A DNA stretch of 37,190 nucleotides from a virus: positions 1 through 37,190 of the IMG/VR virus record IMGVR_UViG_3300045594_000115, one strand, 5' to 3'. Every line of letters starts with the position of its first letter. Within the stretch, counting starts at the first letter, position 1. The notes below the pieces were generated by a model that had not been told where the DNA came from, did not search any database, and saw only the letters and a program-made list of their open reading frames with translations. Of the stretch, positions 605 through 31,922 are shown piece after piece. A program made the position numbers and the translations under genes.

Positions 605-933
605 GCTTTTGCCTCCTGTTTAATTAATGGCGTTTCTGAGAAGTCCAGTGCTGCGAAGTGCTTAGCTAGTTTAATTAAATTAAGCAAGCTACCCGAAACT
701 TCGCCGTCAGCACAGATACTATCTGACGCTTCATGAATCATGCGTGTATTTGCCTGAACAATGCCTCCAACGAGCACGATGATGTCTTGCCACTGTGCTT
801 CGGTAACGTCTAGGCAACCACTGTCATAATCACGTTCGATGTCCGCTACTGTTTGATTCAAGGCCGTTTCGTATGCTCGCAGCCGCTTATCCAAGCGTTG
901 CAAATATCTATTCGTCATTTCTTCTGCTGTCAC
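601..933 (-). CDS. Hypothetical early protein, 110 aa
   Basis: GTG start overlaps the upstream stop (GTGA) and AAGGGGG RBS is present. It is part of a tightly coupled operon. Confidence 0.65.
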   Translation of the reverse strand: MTAEEMTNRYLQRLDKRLRAYETALNQTVADIERDYDSGCLDVTEAQWQDIIVLVGGIVQANTRMIHEASDSICADGEVSGSLLNLIKLAKHFAALDFSETPLIKQEAKA

Positions 934-1712
934 ATTCTTTTCCCCCTTACGTCGGTTAGTTTTTCAAAATTTAAGGTGCAATCTTTTGATTTTGGAATAA
1001 TTCGGCTGATTAGTTTGCTGTTGTACATGCGTTCAAGCTCACTCATCTCGTTGTTGGTTGTGATGATCGTTGATAGACGAGGCATGTTGCTTTCAAAATC
1101 AAGACGAGCATTCGCAATGCGGTACATCAGCTCTTGCATGTCACGTCTAACCGGCTTGATGTCGAGCTTCATTCCGCCCTCGGTTCCGAAGTCGTCCAGC
1201 AGCAGCACGTCAGCTTCTTTCATTGCCCGCTCAATGCCCGCTAAACGCTTACGAACGTCTGGTGCATCATATTGCAAGCCCATTAGGTTGCTCAGCTCTG
1301 CTGTTGAGATAAACAGCCCTGACTGGCCTTCATCGCGCAAGCTGGTTAGCATTGCTAAAGCAAGTGATGTCTTGCCTGTTCCACGAGGGCCGAACAAAAT
1401 CACGTTTTCAGGCGTTTTTTGCATTTGCTTTGCCAGCTTGTATGCTCGGTTTCCCAGATCTCTTGATTTCTGCATATCCGTCTGCATTTCAGGCAGCCAT
1501 TTGTCGAACGTAAACTTAGCCGGAACGTTTCCGGGGAAGACTGAGTAGCGATAAATGGCACGTGCCTTTTTACGGTTCAGAGTAGCCATAGAGCGTTCGT
1601 AGAAGCGGTGCTCGATCTCGGCCTGAGTTGGCAGCTTGCTAACGTCCATTCCTCGCTTTTCGATTATTTTTTGCACGTCCGCATGTGTGAATAGGCCCTT
1701 AGTCGACTCCAT
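930..1712 (-). CDS. DnaC/IstB-like AAA+ helicase loader
   Basis: Walker A GPRGTGKTSLA and Walker B LLLDDFG. It sits immediately downstream of the DnaD-like gene. Confidence 0.85.
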   Translation of the reverse strand: MESTKGLFTHADVQKIIEKRGMDVSKLPTQAEIEHRFYERSMATLNRKKARAIYRYSVFPGNVPAKFTFDKWLPEMQTDMQKSRDLGNRAYKLAKQMQKTPENVILFGPRGTGKTSLALAMLTSLRDEGQSGLFISTAELSNLMGLQYDAPDVRKRLAGIERAMKEADVLLLDDFGTEGGMKLDIKPVRRDMQELMYRIANARLDFESNMPRLSTIITTNNEMSELERMYNSKLISRIIPKSKDCTLNFEKLTDVRGKRM

Positions 1713-19900: not shown

Positions 19901-20047
19901 CGCCCCCATCTTGAGAAAACCGCCGCCGACTTTTTGGCCCATGCTAGATGCTGAATCCGTGCCAGCTTTTACGGATGAAGACAGTTTCCCCATGGCTGCT
20001 TGGAATGGCGCTATGTTTGCTGTGAATGTTGCGACTACGTTTGCCAT
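16997..20047 (-). CDS. Tape measure protein
   Basis: 1016 aa, Gly/Ala/Ser-rich with hydrophobic segments and WNGIV repeats. It follows the G/GT chaperones. Confidence 0.9.
17500..18430. repeat. Tandem 66-bp (22-aa) repeats inside the tape measure gene, with Trp every 11 residues
   Basis: CCATTCCACAACCC recurs at 17625, 17691 and 17757 (period 66). The protein motif (F)[17 protein letters not shown] is repeated more than 10 times. Confidence 0.8.
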
Positions 20048-20502
20048 TAGCTACCACCTCCAAATGCGGCATTGAGTTTCTTAATCATTTCGACATCAGG
20101 CTTTCTTTCTCGATTGCCACTGCGTTTGAGTACCTTTTGTTCGGCTTTGTCAATGTTCTTGTAGCCAACCTTGACTGACCGTTTAGGATTCTTTGCATTC
20201 TGAATGTTGGCAATGTTGACAGCAAGCTCCATCAGATCGCGCCGCATATCAACATCACGCAAAAAAGACCCTTCCAGCATTGAACGGGCTTCCCACATGT
20301 ACAAATCGAATGGCATATTGGGATCATATATCCCATGCCGAGCAAAATCGGTTAAGAGAGACTCTTCTTCATTGCGTCCAGGGTATCCTTGGTCGCTGCT
20401 TCTTGAATCTTCTCTTCGGCTGTCTTGTTCTTCTTGTCCGTCAATGCTTTCCCGTATTTTTCGGTCAAGTTCAGCCAACGTTGTGCTGCGTGTTTGAAAA
20501 AA
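20047..20502 (-). CDS. Tail assembly chaperone, T segment (expressed as a G-T fusion by -1 frameshift)
   Basis: The -1 frame is open from the slippery site through 20047. Its stop overlaps the tape measure ATG (TAATG). Confidence 0.6.
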
Positions 20503-26485: not shown

Positions 26486-27929
26486 TGTTCGTCAAATCCT
26501 CACTGTAATCGCTGTCTTCCCGTTGTTTGGCAATCATATCGGTAATCTCTTGCGGATCAGTGACACCCGGTGCAAATCTGTAGAGATATTCTTGTGGCAG
26601 TGTCGCACCAGCAGCAACAAGCGCCTGAATTTGTGTGATATCGTCGGTTGGCAAATTGTCTCGGAAGGTGAACTGAATCGTATTAGGGTCTGTCTTCATT
26701 CCGCCTGACACGCTTTGATCCAATGCATAGATGATTGAATATCGCTGATACAATGACTTCTCAAACATTCTCCGTTTGATTGCCGCTAATTCGACAGTGC
26801 CAAGCAGCTTGTACTTCATTGCAACGCCAGAAACATTGTCTGCAAAGTTACTGTCAGTCAGGTCCGGTGTGTGGCTGAACTTGTGAATGTCTTCGGCAAC
26901 ACGTTTCTTATACGCTTCAGTGCCACTGACGTCATACTCTTTGTTGATGTATTTTGCGTCAACGCTCGTCTGTTGGCCGTTTGCCATCATTCGAGACTTG
27001 AGCAGCAGCATGTTGGCGTCTTTTTGTTCTTTGATAAGCTCTAGTTTGTCCTGTGCTAGCTTTTTCATTGCCTCAGGGTCGTTAGGGTCAACACCACTCA
27101 TAAGCGTGCTACCGTTGAATAAGGCATCAATGTCGCCTGTGATGACCAGCAATGCATCATTCAAGTCCGTCATGTAGTTAGCGGTATCAGACTGTGCCGA
27201 ATCGTACAGGTCAATCAGTGAGATCACATGTTCGAAGTCACCTGTTCGGAACCGGTTATTGTCATACTCGACAACGGGAAACACGCGAATGATCTCGCTG
27301 TGATCCAAATACATTGCACCGCCAACCGTGGTCGGCTTATAAATGTCATGCTCTGTTGCAGTCCATGTTTCGGGGATGATGTCGATGATTGTCTTGTTAT
27401 TCTCGTCAACCAATTCTACTGAATGATAGCGAACAGCCATGATTGGTTGCGGATCAACGTCAAGCGAGTAGATTACGAACGTGTCAAGCGGATCTAAGCG
27501 CACGCAATGCTCGATTGAGTCGCTACCGTAGTAAACGTACTCGTATGCACGTCCATAGCGCGTCATGTCTAGGAACAGATCATAGTTGAGCGCGTCTAGG
27601 TCGTTCACGCGTGTGATTTGATCAAGCCGTTTGTCATCTTTGTCAAGCTTCACATTAACCGGATTACCAACGGAATATGCTGTCTGGAAATCAGCAATGT
27701 ACTTACCGAATGAATGAACGGATCGATGGTCTGACTTGCCAGTTTCAATACGCCGTGACTGTGGCTGCAGAATGCCTTCGTTCTGGCCCTTGTAATATCG
27801 ATCAAGCTTTTTCAGCCGTGGAAGCTGATATTCGTGGTGGTGGAAAATGAACTTCATAATCCGATCCGGAGTGAGGTTCGTAATGTCTTCTTGATACAGT
27901 AAGTTTGATTCTTCAAATGGGTCCATCAT
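26409..27929 (-). CDS. Portal protein (SPP1 gp6-like)
   Basis: 506 aa, located immediately downstream of TerL. Confidence 0.9.
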   Translation of the reverse strand: MMDPFEESNLLYQEDITNLTPDRIMKFIFHHHEYQLPRLKKLDRYYKGQNEGILQPQSRRIETGKSDHRSVHSFGKYIADFQTAYSVGNPVNVKLDKDDKRLDQITRVNDLDALNYDLFLDMTRYGRAYEYVYYGSDSIEHCVRLDPLDTFVIYSLDVDPQPIMAVRYHSVELVDENNKTIIDIIPETWTATEHDIYKPTTVGGAMYLDHSEIIRVFPVVEYDNNRFRTGDFEHVISLIDLYDSAQSDTANYMTDLNDALLVITGDIDALFNGSTLMSGVDPNDPEAMKKLAQDKLELIKEQKDANMLLLKSRMMANGQQTSVDAKYINKEYDVSGTEAYKKRVAEDIHKFSHTPDLTDSNFADNVSGVAMKYKLLGTVELAAIKRRMFEKSLYQRYSIIYALDQSVSGGMKTDPNTIQFTFRDNLPTDDITQIQALVAAGATLPQEYLYRFAPGVTDPQEITDMIAKQREDSDYSEDLTNNDTDTEGTDQGVRGQARQATPPDSN

Positions 27930-27930
27930 G

Positions 27931-29857: not shown

Positions 29858-31075
29858 TTAGTTGAGTTCATAAGTACACCTCAATCGCGTGTCGTCATAA
29901 ACGAACGCATACAGCAGATGTTTGCCCGTGGTGAAGCCATTCTTAATCTCATAGGGATCATTTGGCTTTGCTGTTCCAAGCTGGCGCCACATAATGCCAC
30001 GATCATCTTTAAACCGCTCGCTATGATAGTGGCCGGAGTGAAGCTCGTATGTTTTTGCCATATTGAATATTTTTTTGTACTCAAATGGAAAAAGTCCTGT
30101 CAGCTTGTCCTTGGCTACATCTCCGTGGGCGAGCATAATGCCAACATGCCCTAGCAAGTATGCACAGCGCCAGTCGGTTGCCGGATTACTATCATTGAGA
30201 TCAACGTGCACTTGTGGATAGCGATCTATCAGCGCATAAAGAAAAGCGTATTCGAGATCACCTGAATGGTTACCGAACACGCTCTTGATTGAGACGCGAT
30301 TGCTATATTCAATTGCCAGCGGAACAATTTGATCAAACAGCTTCACTGCATCATGGAATGCCTGACGCATGTTTGCGTGATCTAGTTGTGTCCCTCTAAC
30401 CGTTTGTGTTGCATGAATCTGATCACTATGGAATAGATCTCCCAATTGCTCGATCACAATCTCGTTGTAGCCGTCCATGATGATCTCTCTAAGTTGACTC
30501 ACCATGTCTTTTAGATCGGCGAATGTTGTCCAGCCAAAATGCAGGTCAGGCAATGGGATGACTAAGTTGCGATCGCCCGATTTCTTCATGCCGTAATTGA
30601 CCGGAATTATTTTTTCATTGAACGCTTCAGCCATTTCACTTATCGATAAGCCTTGTTTCGGCTTTACGCGAATATGAATGCTGTACTGCGGAACTGTGCC
30701 GTCTTCGGTACTATGCTGCTCATACACTTTGTAGTCGCCTAAGACCATCTCGAACTTATCAGGATCGTATCCACACAACTCCATCAAAGTTCGTGGGTCT
30801 TTATTTGGCTCATGCTTGAGTCTCATTAAGGCCGTGACTGTTTGGCTACCATCAGCATTAAGAGCTACTTTTCTGTCAGCGGATGGCGTCTCCCTATTTG
30901 TTCCGTCTGAATCGTATTCATTCTTCAGTGGTTTTTGGAACTCGATGCCAAGCCGTCTTGCTTTACCTTGAAGAGCGTCATAGCTAATCCCGAGCTTGTC
31001 TGCCGTCTCACGTCTGGTAAAGCCTTCAGAGGCGAGCTTCCTAATTCCACTGATTTGTTCATCTGTCCATTGCAT
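29858..31075 (-). CDS. HTH-fused calcineurin-like metallophosphoesterase, 405 aa
   Basis: N-terminal HTH (GFTRRETADKLGISYDALQGKARRLGI). The phosphoesterase motifs appear in order: PDLHFG (DxH), GDLFHSD, GNHS, HGD, GHYH. GGAGGCG RBS. Confidence 0.75.
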   Translation of the reverse strand: MQWTDEQISGIRKLASEGFTRRETADKLGISYDALQGKARRLGIEFQKPLKNEYDSDGTNRETPSADRKVALNADGSQTVTALMRLKHEPNKDPRTLMELCGYDPDKFEMVLGDYKVYEQHSTEDGTVPQYSIHIRVKPKQGLSISEMAEAFNEKIIPVNYGMKKSGDRNLVIPLPDLHFGWTTFADLKDMVSQLREIIMDGYNEIVIEQLGDLFHSDQIHATQTVRGTQLDHANMRQAFHDAVKLFDQIVPLAIEYSNRVSIKSVFGNHSGDLEYAFLYALIDRYPQVHVDLNDSNPATDWRCAYLLGHVGIMLAHGDVAKDKLTGLFPFEYKKIFNMAKTYELHSGHYHSERFKDDRGIMWRQLGTAKPNDPYEIKNGFTTGKHLLYAFVYDDTRLRCTYELN

Positions 31076-31096
31076 CTACTCGCCTCCGTAAATATT

Positions 31097-31129
31097 TATA
31101 AAAATAGCACCCCACATGAAGTGAAGTGC
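31097..31129 (-). terminator. Intrinsic terminator closing the non-coding RNA locus (minus strand)
   Basis: Minus strand GCACUUCAC-UUCAU-GUGGGGUGC (9 bp including 2 G.U pairs) followed by UAUUUUUAU. Confidence 0.6.
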
Positions 31130-31173
31130 CATAGTACGGTGCCTACTCCTAGGGTTTACCAGACTTGGTCCAA

Positions 31174-31257
31174 TATCGCTGGTCGGGATTTGCACCCGAC
31201 ATGATGTGCACGCTACCATCTACGTGTCCTAGCGTCTACCTATTCCGCCACAGCGAT
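31174..31257 (-). ncRNA. tRNA-like element B (class II tRNA-like 5' half, acceptor and T-arm; no canonical anticodon arm)
   Basis: The minus-strand RNA has a perfect 7-bp acceptor AUCGCUG/CAGCGAU. It has U8, a D-arm GCGG-AAUAGGUAG-ACGC (A14, G18G19 as in Leu/Ser/Tyr tRNAs) and a T-arm GUCGGG-UGCAAAU-CCCGAC (6 bp). The 84-nt length fits class II. No 5-bp/7-nt anticodon hairpin can be drawn in the central 30 nt, and no CCA is encoded. Confidence 0.45.
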
Positions 31258-31321
31258 TTGCTCGCTCTCCCAGTGTCAGATGGGGTCATCGCAAGCTGTG
31301 TCCGGTCGCTAAACTGGACAA

Positions 31322-31385
31322 TGTGGCATGCGGGAATCGAACCCGCCTGACTATCACAGCCAGTCCATTTGCCACGCCTTGCCAC
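31322..31385 (-). ncRNA. tRNA-like element A (acceptor, anticodon-like hairpin and canonical T-arm; D-arm missing)
   Basis: The minus-strand RNA has a T-arm GCGGG-UUCGAUU-CCCGC (textbook T-loop) and a 3' acceptor AUGCCAC pairing with either of two tandem GUGGCAA copies. A hairpin CUGGC-UGUGAUA-GUCAG abuts the T-arm with no variable loop. At 54 to 64 nt it is too short for a cloverleaf. Confidence 0.4.
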
Positions 31386-31484
31386 AGTTTTATCATCACT
31401 GAGGCTCGGAGTAAAAATGCGGTGTCTTAGGTTTCTCACCTTTGGCACAATACCATCATATGACGGAAATACGGTTGAAAGGTC

Positions 31485-31922
31485 TCACAAAGGTCTCATC
31501 TCGATTTCAACCAATGGGCAAATCTCAGCGAATGCGATTAGCGCCTCTCGTTTTGTTCGATAATACTGGGCTTTTGATAAAAACAGCTTGTCCATTATTT
31601 GCTGGTCACTATATCGTTTGGTTAAGTAAGAACTTGTTAGTATAAGCCGATGATTCGCTGAATCCAGAGATTCGATAGCACCTTCACAGCACGCTATATA
31701 GTACAGCTCGTCAGCGTGCGATATCACCTTTTCCTCAGCTTTGTTGCCATAGCTAGGTGACTTGGGCATGCCGTCCATCACGGGACTTCTGAGCGCTATT
31801 TTGGTGCGTTGAGCGAGCCGCTTGTGATGCCAGTAGTTCCCCAAGACCTCTTTGGCGTTTTCAATTGTTTTGTCATGATCAATTGGGCTAAAATATCTCG
31901 TTGCTCGCACCACTGCGTCCAC
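31485..31922 (-). CDS. arpU: ArpU-family late transcriptional regulator
   Basis: 145 aa, located at the early/late boundary upstream of the packaging genes. The sequence pattern ...ENAKEVLGNYWHHKRLA...YYRTKREALIAFAE is typical of ArpU/RinA-like regulators. Confidence 0.75.
   Translation of the reverse strand: MDAVVRATRYFSPIDHDKTIENAKEVLGNYWHHKRLAQRTKIALRSPVMDGMPKSPSYGNKAEEKVISHADELYYIACCEGAIESLDSANHRLILTSSYLTKRYSDQQIMDKLFLSKAQYYRTKREALIAFAEICPLVEIEMRPL

Follow-up and report, generated by a model that had tools for sequence, protein, structure and literature searches.

Organization and conservation of the locus

We analyzed a stretch of viral DNA of 37,190 nucleotides (IMG/VR record IMGVR_UViG_3300045594_000115, positions 1 to 37,190; referred to as the window) and concentrated on the 410 nt between arpU, the gene of a late-gene activator, and the first late gene (positions 31076 to 31484). 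An earlier reading of the same letters (the original prediction) had described two tRNA-like modules at this place, Element A and Element B, and direct reading of the sequence confirmed both at the minus-strand positions that it gave. The 3' end of arpU overlaps putative activator boxes. These are followed by a promoter core at the edge of a conserved block that contains four hairpins and Element A, then by Element B, a further hairpin and an intrinsic terminator. For positions see Table 1.

Table 1. Features between arpU and the first late gene of the window.
Feature	Position	Strand	Basis and remarks
arpU, late-gene activator (ArpU/Ltr family)	31485..31922	-	PHROG 248 'transcriptional activator', E = 2e-45; Pfam DUF1492
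Putative ArpU boxes	31478..31509	-	direct repeats, 11-nt phasing (repeat search)
Box copies TGAGACC	31498..31492 and 31487..31481	-	
Degenerate box copy TGAAATC	31509..31503	-	
Late promoter core TATGAT-GG-TATTGT	31447..31460	-	pair of -10-like hexamers separated by 2 nt; kept in every L. casei-group locus
Conserved leader block (~200 nt)	31259..31460	-	92-97% identity in 47 GenBank phages
Hairpin 1	31448..31422	-	
Hairpin 2	31409..31377	-	
GTGGCAA copies	31385..31379 and 31375..31369	-	10 nt apart
Element A, 54-nt D-armless mini tRNA-like RNA	31322..31375	-	sequence read directly; exact T-arm match
Hairpin 4	31320..31299	-	
Hairpin 5	31296..31260	-	
Element B, 84-nt member of tRNA-Leu-like scaffold family	31174..31257	-	core matches at every position
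Hairpin 6 (AGUCUGG..CCGUACU)	31133..31165	-	minimum-free-energy fold; in a 3' module common to CL2, J-1, Lrm1, JNU_P9, R24.2 and Lc-Nu
Intrinsic terminator, 12-bp stem + U-tract	31099..31132 (stem 31132..31104)	-	terminator scan; kept in most relatives
Ribosome-binding site GGAGG	31087..31083	-	
First late gene	29858..31075	-	ATG at 31075

A BLAST search matched this part of the genome in 47 GenBank phages, which belong to Lacticaseibacillus casei, paracasei and rhamnosus and include A2, J-1, PL-1, Lc-Nu, phiAT3, Lrm1, CL1/CL2, BH1 and T25. The match always lay in the same position between arpU and the late genes. GenBank phages and IMG/VR contigs retrieved via ArpU gave a comparison set of about 95 loci of the L. 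casei group, whose members are denoted below by L and a number. The initial ~226 nt past arpU are 92-97% identical in the 47 GenBank phages and the remainder is mosaic; the length of the intergenic region varies from 278 to 1087 nt among the relatives. The conserved leader block was found in all 95 of the 95 loci that extend past arpU. Its RNAalifold consensus comprises 51 base pairs with only three broken cells, and its end coincides exactly with the start of the next tRNA-like structure (TLS).

The original prediction had called the stretch free of open reading frames (ORFs). Taken literally this does not hold, as ORFs of 47-89 amino acids overlap it, but none of them is kept as a reading frame in relatives and the non-coding assignment stands. 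The protein-coding reading, including that of a 70-amino-acid ORF (31448..31236), was ruled out by indels of 1, 2 and 155 nt in relatives. The linker of Element A, which falls within this ORF, carries indels of 1-2 nt, phage JNU_P9 has a 2-nt insert within the same ORF, which spans Element A, and inserts of 155-223 nt are placed in it exactly after the discriminator of Element A. With three kinds of indels inside the ORF there is therefore no conserved reading frame. Substitutions in the stems of the conserved block convert G-U to A-U or G-C on the minus strand only, and the fold compared with shuffled sequences gave z = -2.6 for the minus and z = -1.1 for the plus strand. The comparison establishes the locus as non-coding, conserved and read on the minus (gene-sense) strand, and as a unit that has an activator-dependent promoter layout at one end and a terminator at the other.

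Standard annotation tools call neither element, in line with the earlier statement that these are no ordinary decoding tRNAs. ARAGORN found 0 tRNA or tmRNA genes in the whole window, and Rfam gave no match at gathering thresholds over the entire 37 kb. At E <= 10, no Rfam listing for tRNA was obtained over positions 30900..31700 beyond the T-arm of Element A. The sub-threshold Rfam matches Plastid-ycf2, mir-73 and sau-6072 were rejected as chance matches to the T-arm or the terminator.

Element A

The T-arm of Element A, GCGGG-UUCGAUU-CCCGC (31346..31330), is canonical and is the only significant local match to Rfam (tmRNA/tRNA T-arm). It is directly adjoined by the hairpin CUGGC-UGUGAUA-GUCAG (31363..31347). 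The acceptor is formed by GUGGCA(A) and (A)UGCCAC with six base pairs and an A-A (or A-G) apposition at 7:66; its 3' strand, AUGCCAC (31329..31323), is followed by the discriminator A (31322) and then by UUG. The linker is AUGGA. Across the loci the element is 54-56 nt and the linker 5-7 nt long. Element A does not form a cloverleaf: it has neither a D-arm nor a variable region, and the loop UGUGAUA carries G33 and U37. The original prediction had correctly described the T-arm, the abutting hairpin and the missing arms, but had let the acceptor pair with either of the two GUGGCAA copies. The upstream copy belongs to a hairpin of its own, GCCUCAG..CUGUGGC in the window and GCCNNNG..CUGUGGC over the loci, in which it supplies the 3' strand and the 5' strand varies with the pairing mostly kept. 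Element A proper therefore starts at 31375.

Comparison with known RNA families gave 16 bits (E = 3.1) for mascRNA-menRNA (RF01684; gathering threshold 42.5) and, for tmRNA (RF00023), 17 bits against a gathering threshold of 47 with the 17-nt T-arm alone. We observed 22 sequence variants of Element A across the loci. In L031, L100 and L151 it is replaced in place by a non-homologous 52-nt RNA of the same architecture, which keeps the purine-purine apposition before the 3' acceptor strand, and the L. reuteri phage LR1 carries another D-armless analogue. The case for Element A is made by its likeness to tRNA, by the fact that mosaic genomes retain it, by the pattern of the indels and by its replacement by analogues.

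Element B and its family

In Element B the acceptor is formed without mismatch by AUCGCUG (31257..31251) and CAGCGAU (31181..31175); the discriminator is A31174. The D-arm GCGG-AAUAGGUAGA-CGC follows after UG (with U8) and holds A14, A15, G18G19 and A20a. The T-arm GUCGGG-UGCAAAU-CCCGAC (31200..31182), preceded by AUG, has an apparent stem of 6 bp and a loop of the U-G-N-R-A type with G55. The acceptor, U8, the D-arm with A14 and G18G19 and the T-arm were thus read as originally described. It was also correct that the center forms no anticodon arm of 5 bp and 7 nt; the center does form a hairpin, namely the variable arm CACGU-AGAUGGUA-GCGUG, in which CACGU and GCGUG pair over 5 bp. This arm lies 5 nt from the D-arm and is the sole central hairpin, and its loop of 8 nt is not that of a canonical anticodon arm.

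Element B belongs to a family with the core acc7-UG-G[CU]GG-AA(U/A/C)AGGUA(G/A)A-CGC ... AUG-YNNGG-UGCAAAU-CCNNR-C-acc7'-N, in which acceptor, D-stem and T-stem are paired. Within the L. casei group its acceptor, D-arm and T-arm are constant and the 29-59-nt center is wholly different between phages; the arm of the window is a deletion derivative of that in L151. The copy in the Enterococcus phage phiFL2A has only 52 nt. Here the center is absent, the changes in acceptor and T-stem are compensated and the T-loop is again UGCAAAU; the core is thus found in phages of Enterococcus as well as of Lacticaseibacillus. When IMG/VR was scanned with GGTGCAAATCCNNNCCAG, at least 120 contigs matched. The B family occurs in more than 100 viral contigs, and the phages that could be identified are those of Firmicutes.

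We located the acceptor of family members by the D-arm motif, a procedure that does not presuppose pairing. Among the matches listed, the motif was found at most 190 nt upstream in 101 of 133 T-arm pattern matches, and the 7 nt before it, taken as the 5' acceptor strand, paired with the 7 nt that follow the T-arm at 7/7 positions in 89 and at 6/7 in 11 of these 101. For the covariation analysis, filler was put in place of the variable arm in 35 distinct cores. Base pairs were formed in 96.4% of the cells (30-42% with the partners slid), and changes on both sides occurred at 11 of 16 pairs. The cores contain 112 compensated cells where 28 are expected. The covariation score was 0.586 compared with 0.171 after shuffling, and none of 500 shuffles reached 0.586. 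The search pattern itself fixes two G-C pairs of the T-stem and three positions of the acceptor, which are hence uninformative; the sixth T-stem pair of the family never varies. This analysis establishes the B family as a real RNA family with strong covariation. The covariation check proposed with the original prediction therefore turned out positive for the core of B, whereas it gave a weak result within Element A.

Members of the family are 52-213 nt long and carry a hypervariable arm of about 0-155 nt in place of the anticodon and variable regions. A14, A15, G18G19, A20a, U54:A58 and C56 are conserved; position 73 is A in about two thirds of the cores and U or C in about a third. ARAGORN rejects 54 of 55 family sequences and a single member reaches the Rfam tRNA threshold (29.8 bits; gathering threshold of RF00005, 29). 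Family members follow activator genes of the ArpU or RinA type and precede the same set of genes for a GcrA-like exonuclease, HNH protein and terminase; they are also located inside arrays of ordinary tRNAs. Element B of the window fits this setting, lying between arpU and the first late gene on the strand of the flanking genes. In locus L124 a ROOL RNA (667-1248, 260 bits) ends 13 nt before a B-type module (1262-1385); the 12 other B-containing loci that we scanned contain tRNAs and no ROOL. No prior description of the families of Element A or B was found in Rfam 15 or in the searchable literature, the coverage of which is incomplete.

tRNA-like modules in related phages

A scan with a combined acceptor and T-arm pattern returned exactly two matches on the minus strand of the window, Elements A and B. 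Over the loci, the sense strand gave 143 matches in 100 kb inside the islands and 2 in 322 kb outside, the antisense strand 4 in the whole loci (422 kb) and shuffled islands 2 in 100 kb; the sequences are related and these counts are not independent. The earlier argument that the elements are too tRNA-like for chance is borne out by these figures.

At least 12 sequence families at this locus share an intact 7-bp acceptor and T-arm, with a middle part that is aberrant, missing or hypervariable. A module in L031 and L100, for example, has a D-arm and lacks the anticodon arm altogether. At the equivalent position of A2, Lrm1, CL2 and phiAT3, RF00005 and/or ARAGORN report tRNA-like genes with odd anticodon loops. 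ARAGORN calls occur in about 14 of the 95 L. casei-group loci, and about half of them are of the type 'tRNA-???' with 2- or 4-nt anticodons. Many modules have 'anticodon' loops of 4-6 nt, and the sole fully canonical island tRNA among the relatives is a tRNA-Ile in L101. The pattern across the families shows that the acceptor/T half of the modules is under selection and that the anticodon domain is not.

Inserts in the islands begin just after the discriminator of Element A and most end with another TLS and an A. CCA is encoded in none of 62 distinct modules, and the trailer UUG is present in 37 of them. In Streptococcus and Lactococcus all tRNA genes lack CCA, and RNase Z cuts the precursors right after the discriminator (PMC8549757). 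Neither Element A nor Element B encodes CCA, as had been stated, but this is no aberration, being normal for at least part of the host order. The original prediction did not include the ArpU-box and promoter architecture described below, the other tRNA-like modules and the few ordinary tRNAs that relatives have at the same place, or the large family to which Element B belongs.

Several observations accompany these results. The insertion hot spot 31322|31321 is used in L004, L008, L014, L021, L050, L071, L082 and L083. The inserts are structured, measure 155-223 nt and usually end in another tRNA-like module plus A; that of L050 comprises 1.4 kb and includes a methyltransferase-like ORF. Acceptor/T-arm minihelices of 43-48 nt with neither D-arm nor anticodon arm (e.g. 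GCCACUAGGACGUUUCUGUUAAGGACGGUGCGAGACCGUCCGGUGGCG) recur in L110 (773-820), L107, L133, L154 (3826-3868) and more than 30 other IMG/VR contigs, in islands shared with the B family. Near-identical modules of the GCAACCG type have been called tRNA-Leu(UAA) in A2 (L002, 1719-1789) and tRNA-Val(UAC) in L030 (3166-3236). The two differ by one base in a non-canonical loop, and such published tRNA calls warrant caution.

Putative late promoter region and end of the proposed leader

The ArpU protein of the window is 66-98% identical to ArpU of L. casei-group phages. These proteins have about 90 N-terminal residues in common, and their C-terminal helix-turn-helix (HTH) part is lineage-specific. At the place of the TGAGACC boxes of the window, other L. 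casei-group arpU lineages carry TGCAACA (three copies), GCGAAC (four copies) or TGGGAA (three copies). The repeat sequence co-varies with the HTH part, which is the pattern expected of cognate operators. In the Enterococcus phage phiFL2A, ArpU activates late transcription, and three 7-nt direct repeats just distal to arpU are required for activation and binding; phages of the Ltr type have a terminator in the ltr-terS intergenic region (PMC3753634). With its phased, lineage-specific repeats and its terminator the window agrees with the description of the Ltr/ArpU-dependent late promoter region given by Quiles-Puchalt et al. 2013 (PMC3753634).

About 20 nt downstream of the repeats, all L. casei-group loci contain the consensus TAT(G/T)AT-(G/T)G-TATTGT. 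We infer an ArpU-dependent late promoter at this 5' edge of the conserved block, with a predicted transcription start around 31446..31440. An extended -10-like sequence, TGGTATTGT at 31455..31447 of the minus strand, had already been noted near the 5' edge, and the conserved core agrees with it to within a few bases.

The same layout, with three to four direct 7-nt repeats at 11-nt phasing, a gap of about 20 nt and two -10-like hexamers 2 nt apart, is seen past arpU across genera (window, 31447..31509, minus strand; L102, 2397-2470; L103, 2412-2520; L104, 2409-2480; L105, 2412-2470). The repeats and core are TTGGCGG (three copies) and TAATAT-AG-TAATAT in phiFL2A, TGGCGGT (four copies) and TATTAT-GG-TATTGT in L. 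reuteri LR1, and ATCGTAG (three copies) and TAAATT-AG-TATTAT in phig1e; the core of a Latilactobacillus phage is TATAAT-AG-TAGTAT. Searches for related loci that started from ArpU, either as a single protein or as an alignment, returned only close relatives, and a word-indexed protein search gave hits in Lacticaseibacillus alone. In the distant ArpU phages obtained by tblastn among GenBank phages, the conserved leader block is absent; they have long arpU-downstream regions that contain tRNAs.

At the other end of the leader, a terminator scan recovered the intrinsic terminator that had been recognized earlier. It ends about 15 nt before the ribosome-binding site. This gap leaves little room for a separate promoter, so that the late genes would have to be reached by read-through.

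Proposed function and alternative explanations

Taken together, the 410-nt stretch most likely belongs to a Lacticaseibacillus (L. casei group) siphophage and is the 5' leader with which transcripts of its ArpU-dependent late operon begin; most likely it is the tRNA island of the phage as well. Judged by their sequences, Elements A and B are non-decoding tRNA-shaped RNAs in which the anticodon domain is a non-canonical hairpin (A) or a hypervariable arm (B). Both keep sequence determinants by which RNase P, RNase Z and the CCA-adding enzyme would recognize them: an acceptor helix predicted to stack on a T-arm with its T-loop, an A as discriminator and a UUG trailer, with CCA not encoded.

We propose the following course of events. 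By binding to the phased direct repeats that overlap the 3' end of arpU, the activator would fire the promoter core 31460..31447. The transcript would take in the structured block with Element A, the two hairpins that follow it, Element B and one more hairpin before it meets the intrinsic terminator just ahead of the late genes. Host tRNA-processing enzymes would excise Elements A and B, which in this way would punctuate the leader, and the tRNA-shaped small RNAs would be freed alongside the structured pieces between them. We have about even confidence in this proposal, in which RNase P, RNase Z and the CCA-adding enzyme would act on the modules, and excision would cut the leader and yield stable non-decoding RNAs of tRNA shape. 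We favor processing as the minimal function, and sequence data cannot separate punctuation from a decoy or mimic.

Several points weigh against this interpretation. The identity within the conserved block (94-95%) is about that of the adjoining 5' part of arpU (~96%), so that conservation alone is no proof of constraint. A terminator within the leader needs read-through or antitermination, and the start site, the read-through and every cleavage are steps that we infer. Variants of Element A mostly differ by single-sided changes. One of its T-stem pairs occurs as C-G, U-G and U-A, and is a C-A mismatch in eight loci; the variation of the element is too slight to prove a structure, and covariation is weak. 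In Element B the apparent acceptor/T stack has 7+6 = 13 bp instead of 12, with an invariant extra G-C pair. Punctuation also does not explain why the arm of Element B is hypervariable or why its D-loop keeps nucleotides of tRNA-Leu identity.

Once excised and tailed with CCA, Elements A and/or B might mimic tRNAs in trans and engage a tRNA-binding partner. This is compatible with processing but would place the function in the released RNA, and we regard it as possible, if rather doubtful. Candidate partners are leucyl-tRNA synthetase (LeuRS), a tRNA-targeting defense nuclease, a toxin that modifies acceptor ends, or a non-ribosomal user of aminoacyl-tRNA; the hypervariable arm would then be the rapidly evolving part, in charge of function or evasion. 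LeuRS of E. coli requires A73 and the D/T tertiary core and dispenses with the anticodon and the variable arm, such that tRNA-Leu lacking both arms is charged (PMC9976931). Element B keeps these features, including the conserved D- and T-loop nucleotides listed above and, in most cores, A73. Its core is constant across very different phages with an arm that is replaced wholesale, which suggests an arms race or a cargo role. Charged tRNA-like RNAs outside translation are known from the tRNA-Other of B. cereus and from irregular tRNA polycistrons (PMC5389517). One family member adjoins ROOL, the cage of which was proposed to enclose phage tRNAs. On the other hand, the T-loop of Element B has G55 in place of U, and the G18:U55 contact was reported to be important for leucylation (PMC9976931); moreover, the cores with U or C at position 73 lack the discriminator in question, Element A has no recognizable identity set and no partner gene is consistently linked, the neighbors of the B family being ordinary late genes.

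A more far-reaching version, which we consider unlikely, is that Element B represents an unrecognized, widespread class of phage RNAs, natural 'tRNA scaffolds' in which a core of the tRNA-Leu type presents a fast-evolving arm and acts in trans. If so, processing and CCA addition would act on the core as on a tRNA, and the 13-bp stack and the GUGC T-loop would keep the RNA off the ribosome. It could then serve as a decoy or inhibitor of tRNA-directed defenses, carry leucine as an adaptor in a non-ribosomal reaction, or associate with ROOL/GOLLD cages as cargo or partner, and Element A and the 43-48-nt minihelices would be minimal members of the same strategy.

Three further explanations fit less well. 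One of them, decayed tRNA genes, had been listed in the original prediction; the elements would be functionless remnants of an earlier tRNA cluster in the phage. This reading can draw on the better tRNAs that some relatives have at the locus (one of them fully canonical), on the short 'anticodon' loops, on the fast turnover of the variable part of the island and on the C-A mismatches in Element A. Decay, however, should hit all arms alike, whereas acceptor and T-arm are intact in at least 12 module families and the anticodon region alone is lost. Element A is present in essentially all related loci and has a structural analogue where it is lost, and the core of B covaries across more than 30 distinct sequences and occurs in both Enterococcus and Lacticaseibacillus phages, which makes decay improbable. 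Of similarly low probability is a cis-acting regulatory leader, in which the block, perhaps with Element A, would modify RNA polymerase or change its fold and so enable read-through of the terminator by antitermination of the put or Q type, or by attenuation, with the tRNA-likeness being incidental or used for sensing. The position of the terminator, with no obvious promoter beyond it and with its counterpart in the Ltr phages, speaks for this, as does the retention of the block in all relatives. Lambdoid Q proteins use sigma-dependent promoter-proximal pause sites, of which the tandem -10-like hexamers are reminiscent; these hexamers could thus combine a promoter with a sigma-dependent pause element. 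Yet phages with the same block differ in the terminator and in the intergenic length, and no conserved alternative pairing between block and terminator was found: the sole candidate, GUGCC/GGCAC, has 5 bp and is absent where the 3' module is missing. We rejected an antitermination switch by long-range pairing of the 5' end with the terminator, for which these five conserved base pairs are all there is. A cis-acting leader also leaves the B family unexplained, which sits in plain tRNA arrays as well.

Finally, the signal might reside in the DNA, with the two GTGGCAA copies as a protein-binding site or the block as a recombination linker between phage modules. The perfect 7-nt direct repeat is spaced by one helical turn (10 bp), and the block, lying between two mosaic segments, could be a homology patch. 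We consider this very improbable. The upstream lineage-specific repeats are the better ArpU boxes, as they co-vary with the HTH part while GTGGCAA is invariant across lineages, and for the same reason GTGGCAA was judged unlikely to be the ArpU operator. L031 and L100 lack the second copy and have a new RNA with acceptor, hairpin and T-arm in its place, and a T-arm that matches at 17 of 17 positions and lies between pairing acceptor strands is unexpected for a protein-binding site.

Comparison with known systems

The locus shares its niche with the tRNA islands of Lactobacillales phages, where co-transcribed genes of the tRNA type lie between regulatory or replication genes and packaging genes, and relatives have RF00005-positive tRNAs at the same spot. 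Unlike such tRNAs, Elements A and B of the window cannot decode, having no 7-nt anticodon loop with U33. ROOL and GOLLD RNAs have been described near tRNA islands (PMC5737381, PMC12286853). Covariance models of ROOL (RF03087) and GOLLD gave no match in the window, 16 GenBank relatives and five distant ArpU phages; the same method detects ROOL in L124. Of the connection to these RNAs suggested originally, the common niche and the one B-type module next to ROOL remain, and a match of the elements or the region does not.

tRNA-like handles for processing are known from the mascRNA of MALAT1, the tRNA-miRNA units of murine gammaherpesvirus-68 and the tRNA punctuation of mitochondria. In these cases, too, a tRNA-shaped element lies in a longer transcript, RNase P and RNase Z need no more than its acceptor/T-arm half, and the role is not translational. 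The present context is that of a bacterial phage, with processing predicted from the retained determinants; the likeness of Element A to mascRNA is weak, concerns the shape and involves no homology. The C4 RNA of P1/P7 and the CI RNA of P4 are phage regulatory RNAs that are matured by RNase P and act as antisense RNAs with known targets. They are alike in being small phage RNAs cut from a leader by host tRNA-processing enzymes, as proposed here; they differ by their antisense targets and have no homology to Elements A and B.

With respect to its core, Element B resembles the minimalist tRNA-Leu reportedly made by Larkin et al. in 2002 and the engineered tRNA scaffolds that are said to go back to Ponchon and Dardel: acceptor, D- and T-domains are intact, and the anticodon and variable regions are deleted (as in the 52-nt copy of phiFL2A) or replaced by a structured insert. 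It differs in being natural and phage-encoded, and in having G55 instead of U55 and an apparent 6-bp T-stem. The tRNA-Gly of staphylococcal cell-wall synthesis has GUGC in place of GT-psi-C, as in Element B. Allo-tRNAs, irregular tRNA polycistrons, B. cereus tRNA-Other and staphylococcal tRNA-Gly likewise combine altered arms or T-loops with a role outside decoding or unsuited to it, and some irregular bacterial tRNA-like RNAs sit in phage tRNA clusters (PMC5389517, PMC9976931). These RNAs keep their anticodon arm, whereas Elements A and B keep no canonical one.

Phage tRNA islands are usually tallied by tRNA finders and explained by codon usage. Much of the content of the loci examined here is invisible to these tools and non-decoding, as the ARAGORN results for the loci and for the B family illustrate, and the annotation and interpretation of such islands should change. 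The B family is a well-supported and easily searchable RNA class in the niche of ROOL and GOLLD and may help with the functions of these RNAs. If the modules indeed are natural scaffolds, or punctuation for RNase P and RNase Z, they would also serve, as ready-made parts, to express RNA in lactic acid bacteria.

Additional features of the locus

An integration site (attP) was also considered for the region and rejected. An exact 26-mer of Element A occurs in Lacticaseibacillus genomes only in prophage copies of the same locus, and the integrase-side genes are distant. On the plus strand of the window, loose matches to the acceptor and T-arm pattern at 858..995, 20004..20048 and 27833..27930 are antisense to coding sequence and most likely due to chance.

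The product of the first late gene is a fusion of a GcrA-like N-terminal HTH with a PHROG 704 'DNA repair exonuclease'. The same protein also follows B-type modules in RinA-type phages (L150, L196). A role in tRNA repair was dismissed, since nothing in the GcrA-like HTH or the exonuclease PHROG ties the gene to tRNA.

The loop of hairpin 2 (31398..31388, minus strand) contains UGAUGA (UGAUGAUAAAA), a box-C or k-turn-like sequence that is invariant in all relatives. An alternative end of the leader is found in L008 (phage R29.1), L031 (1720-1790) and L100 (3720-3800), where the terminator is a different one, flanked by CACCUCA...UGAGGUG. Pairing across the terminator hairpin is therefore possible between an upstream anti-Shine-Dalgarno sequence and the Shine-Dalgarno sequence that serves the first late gene.

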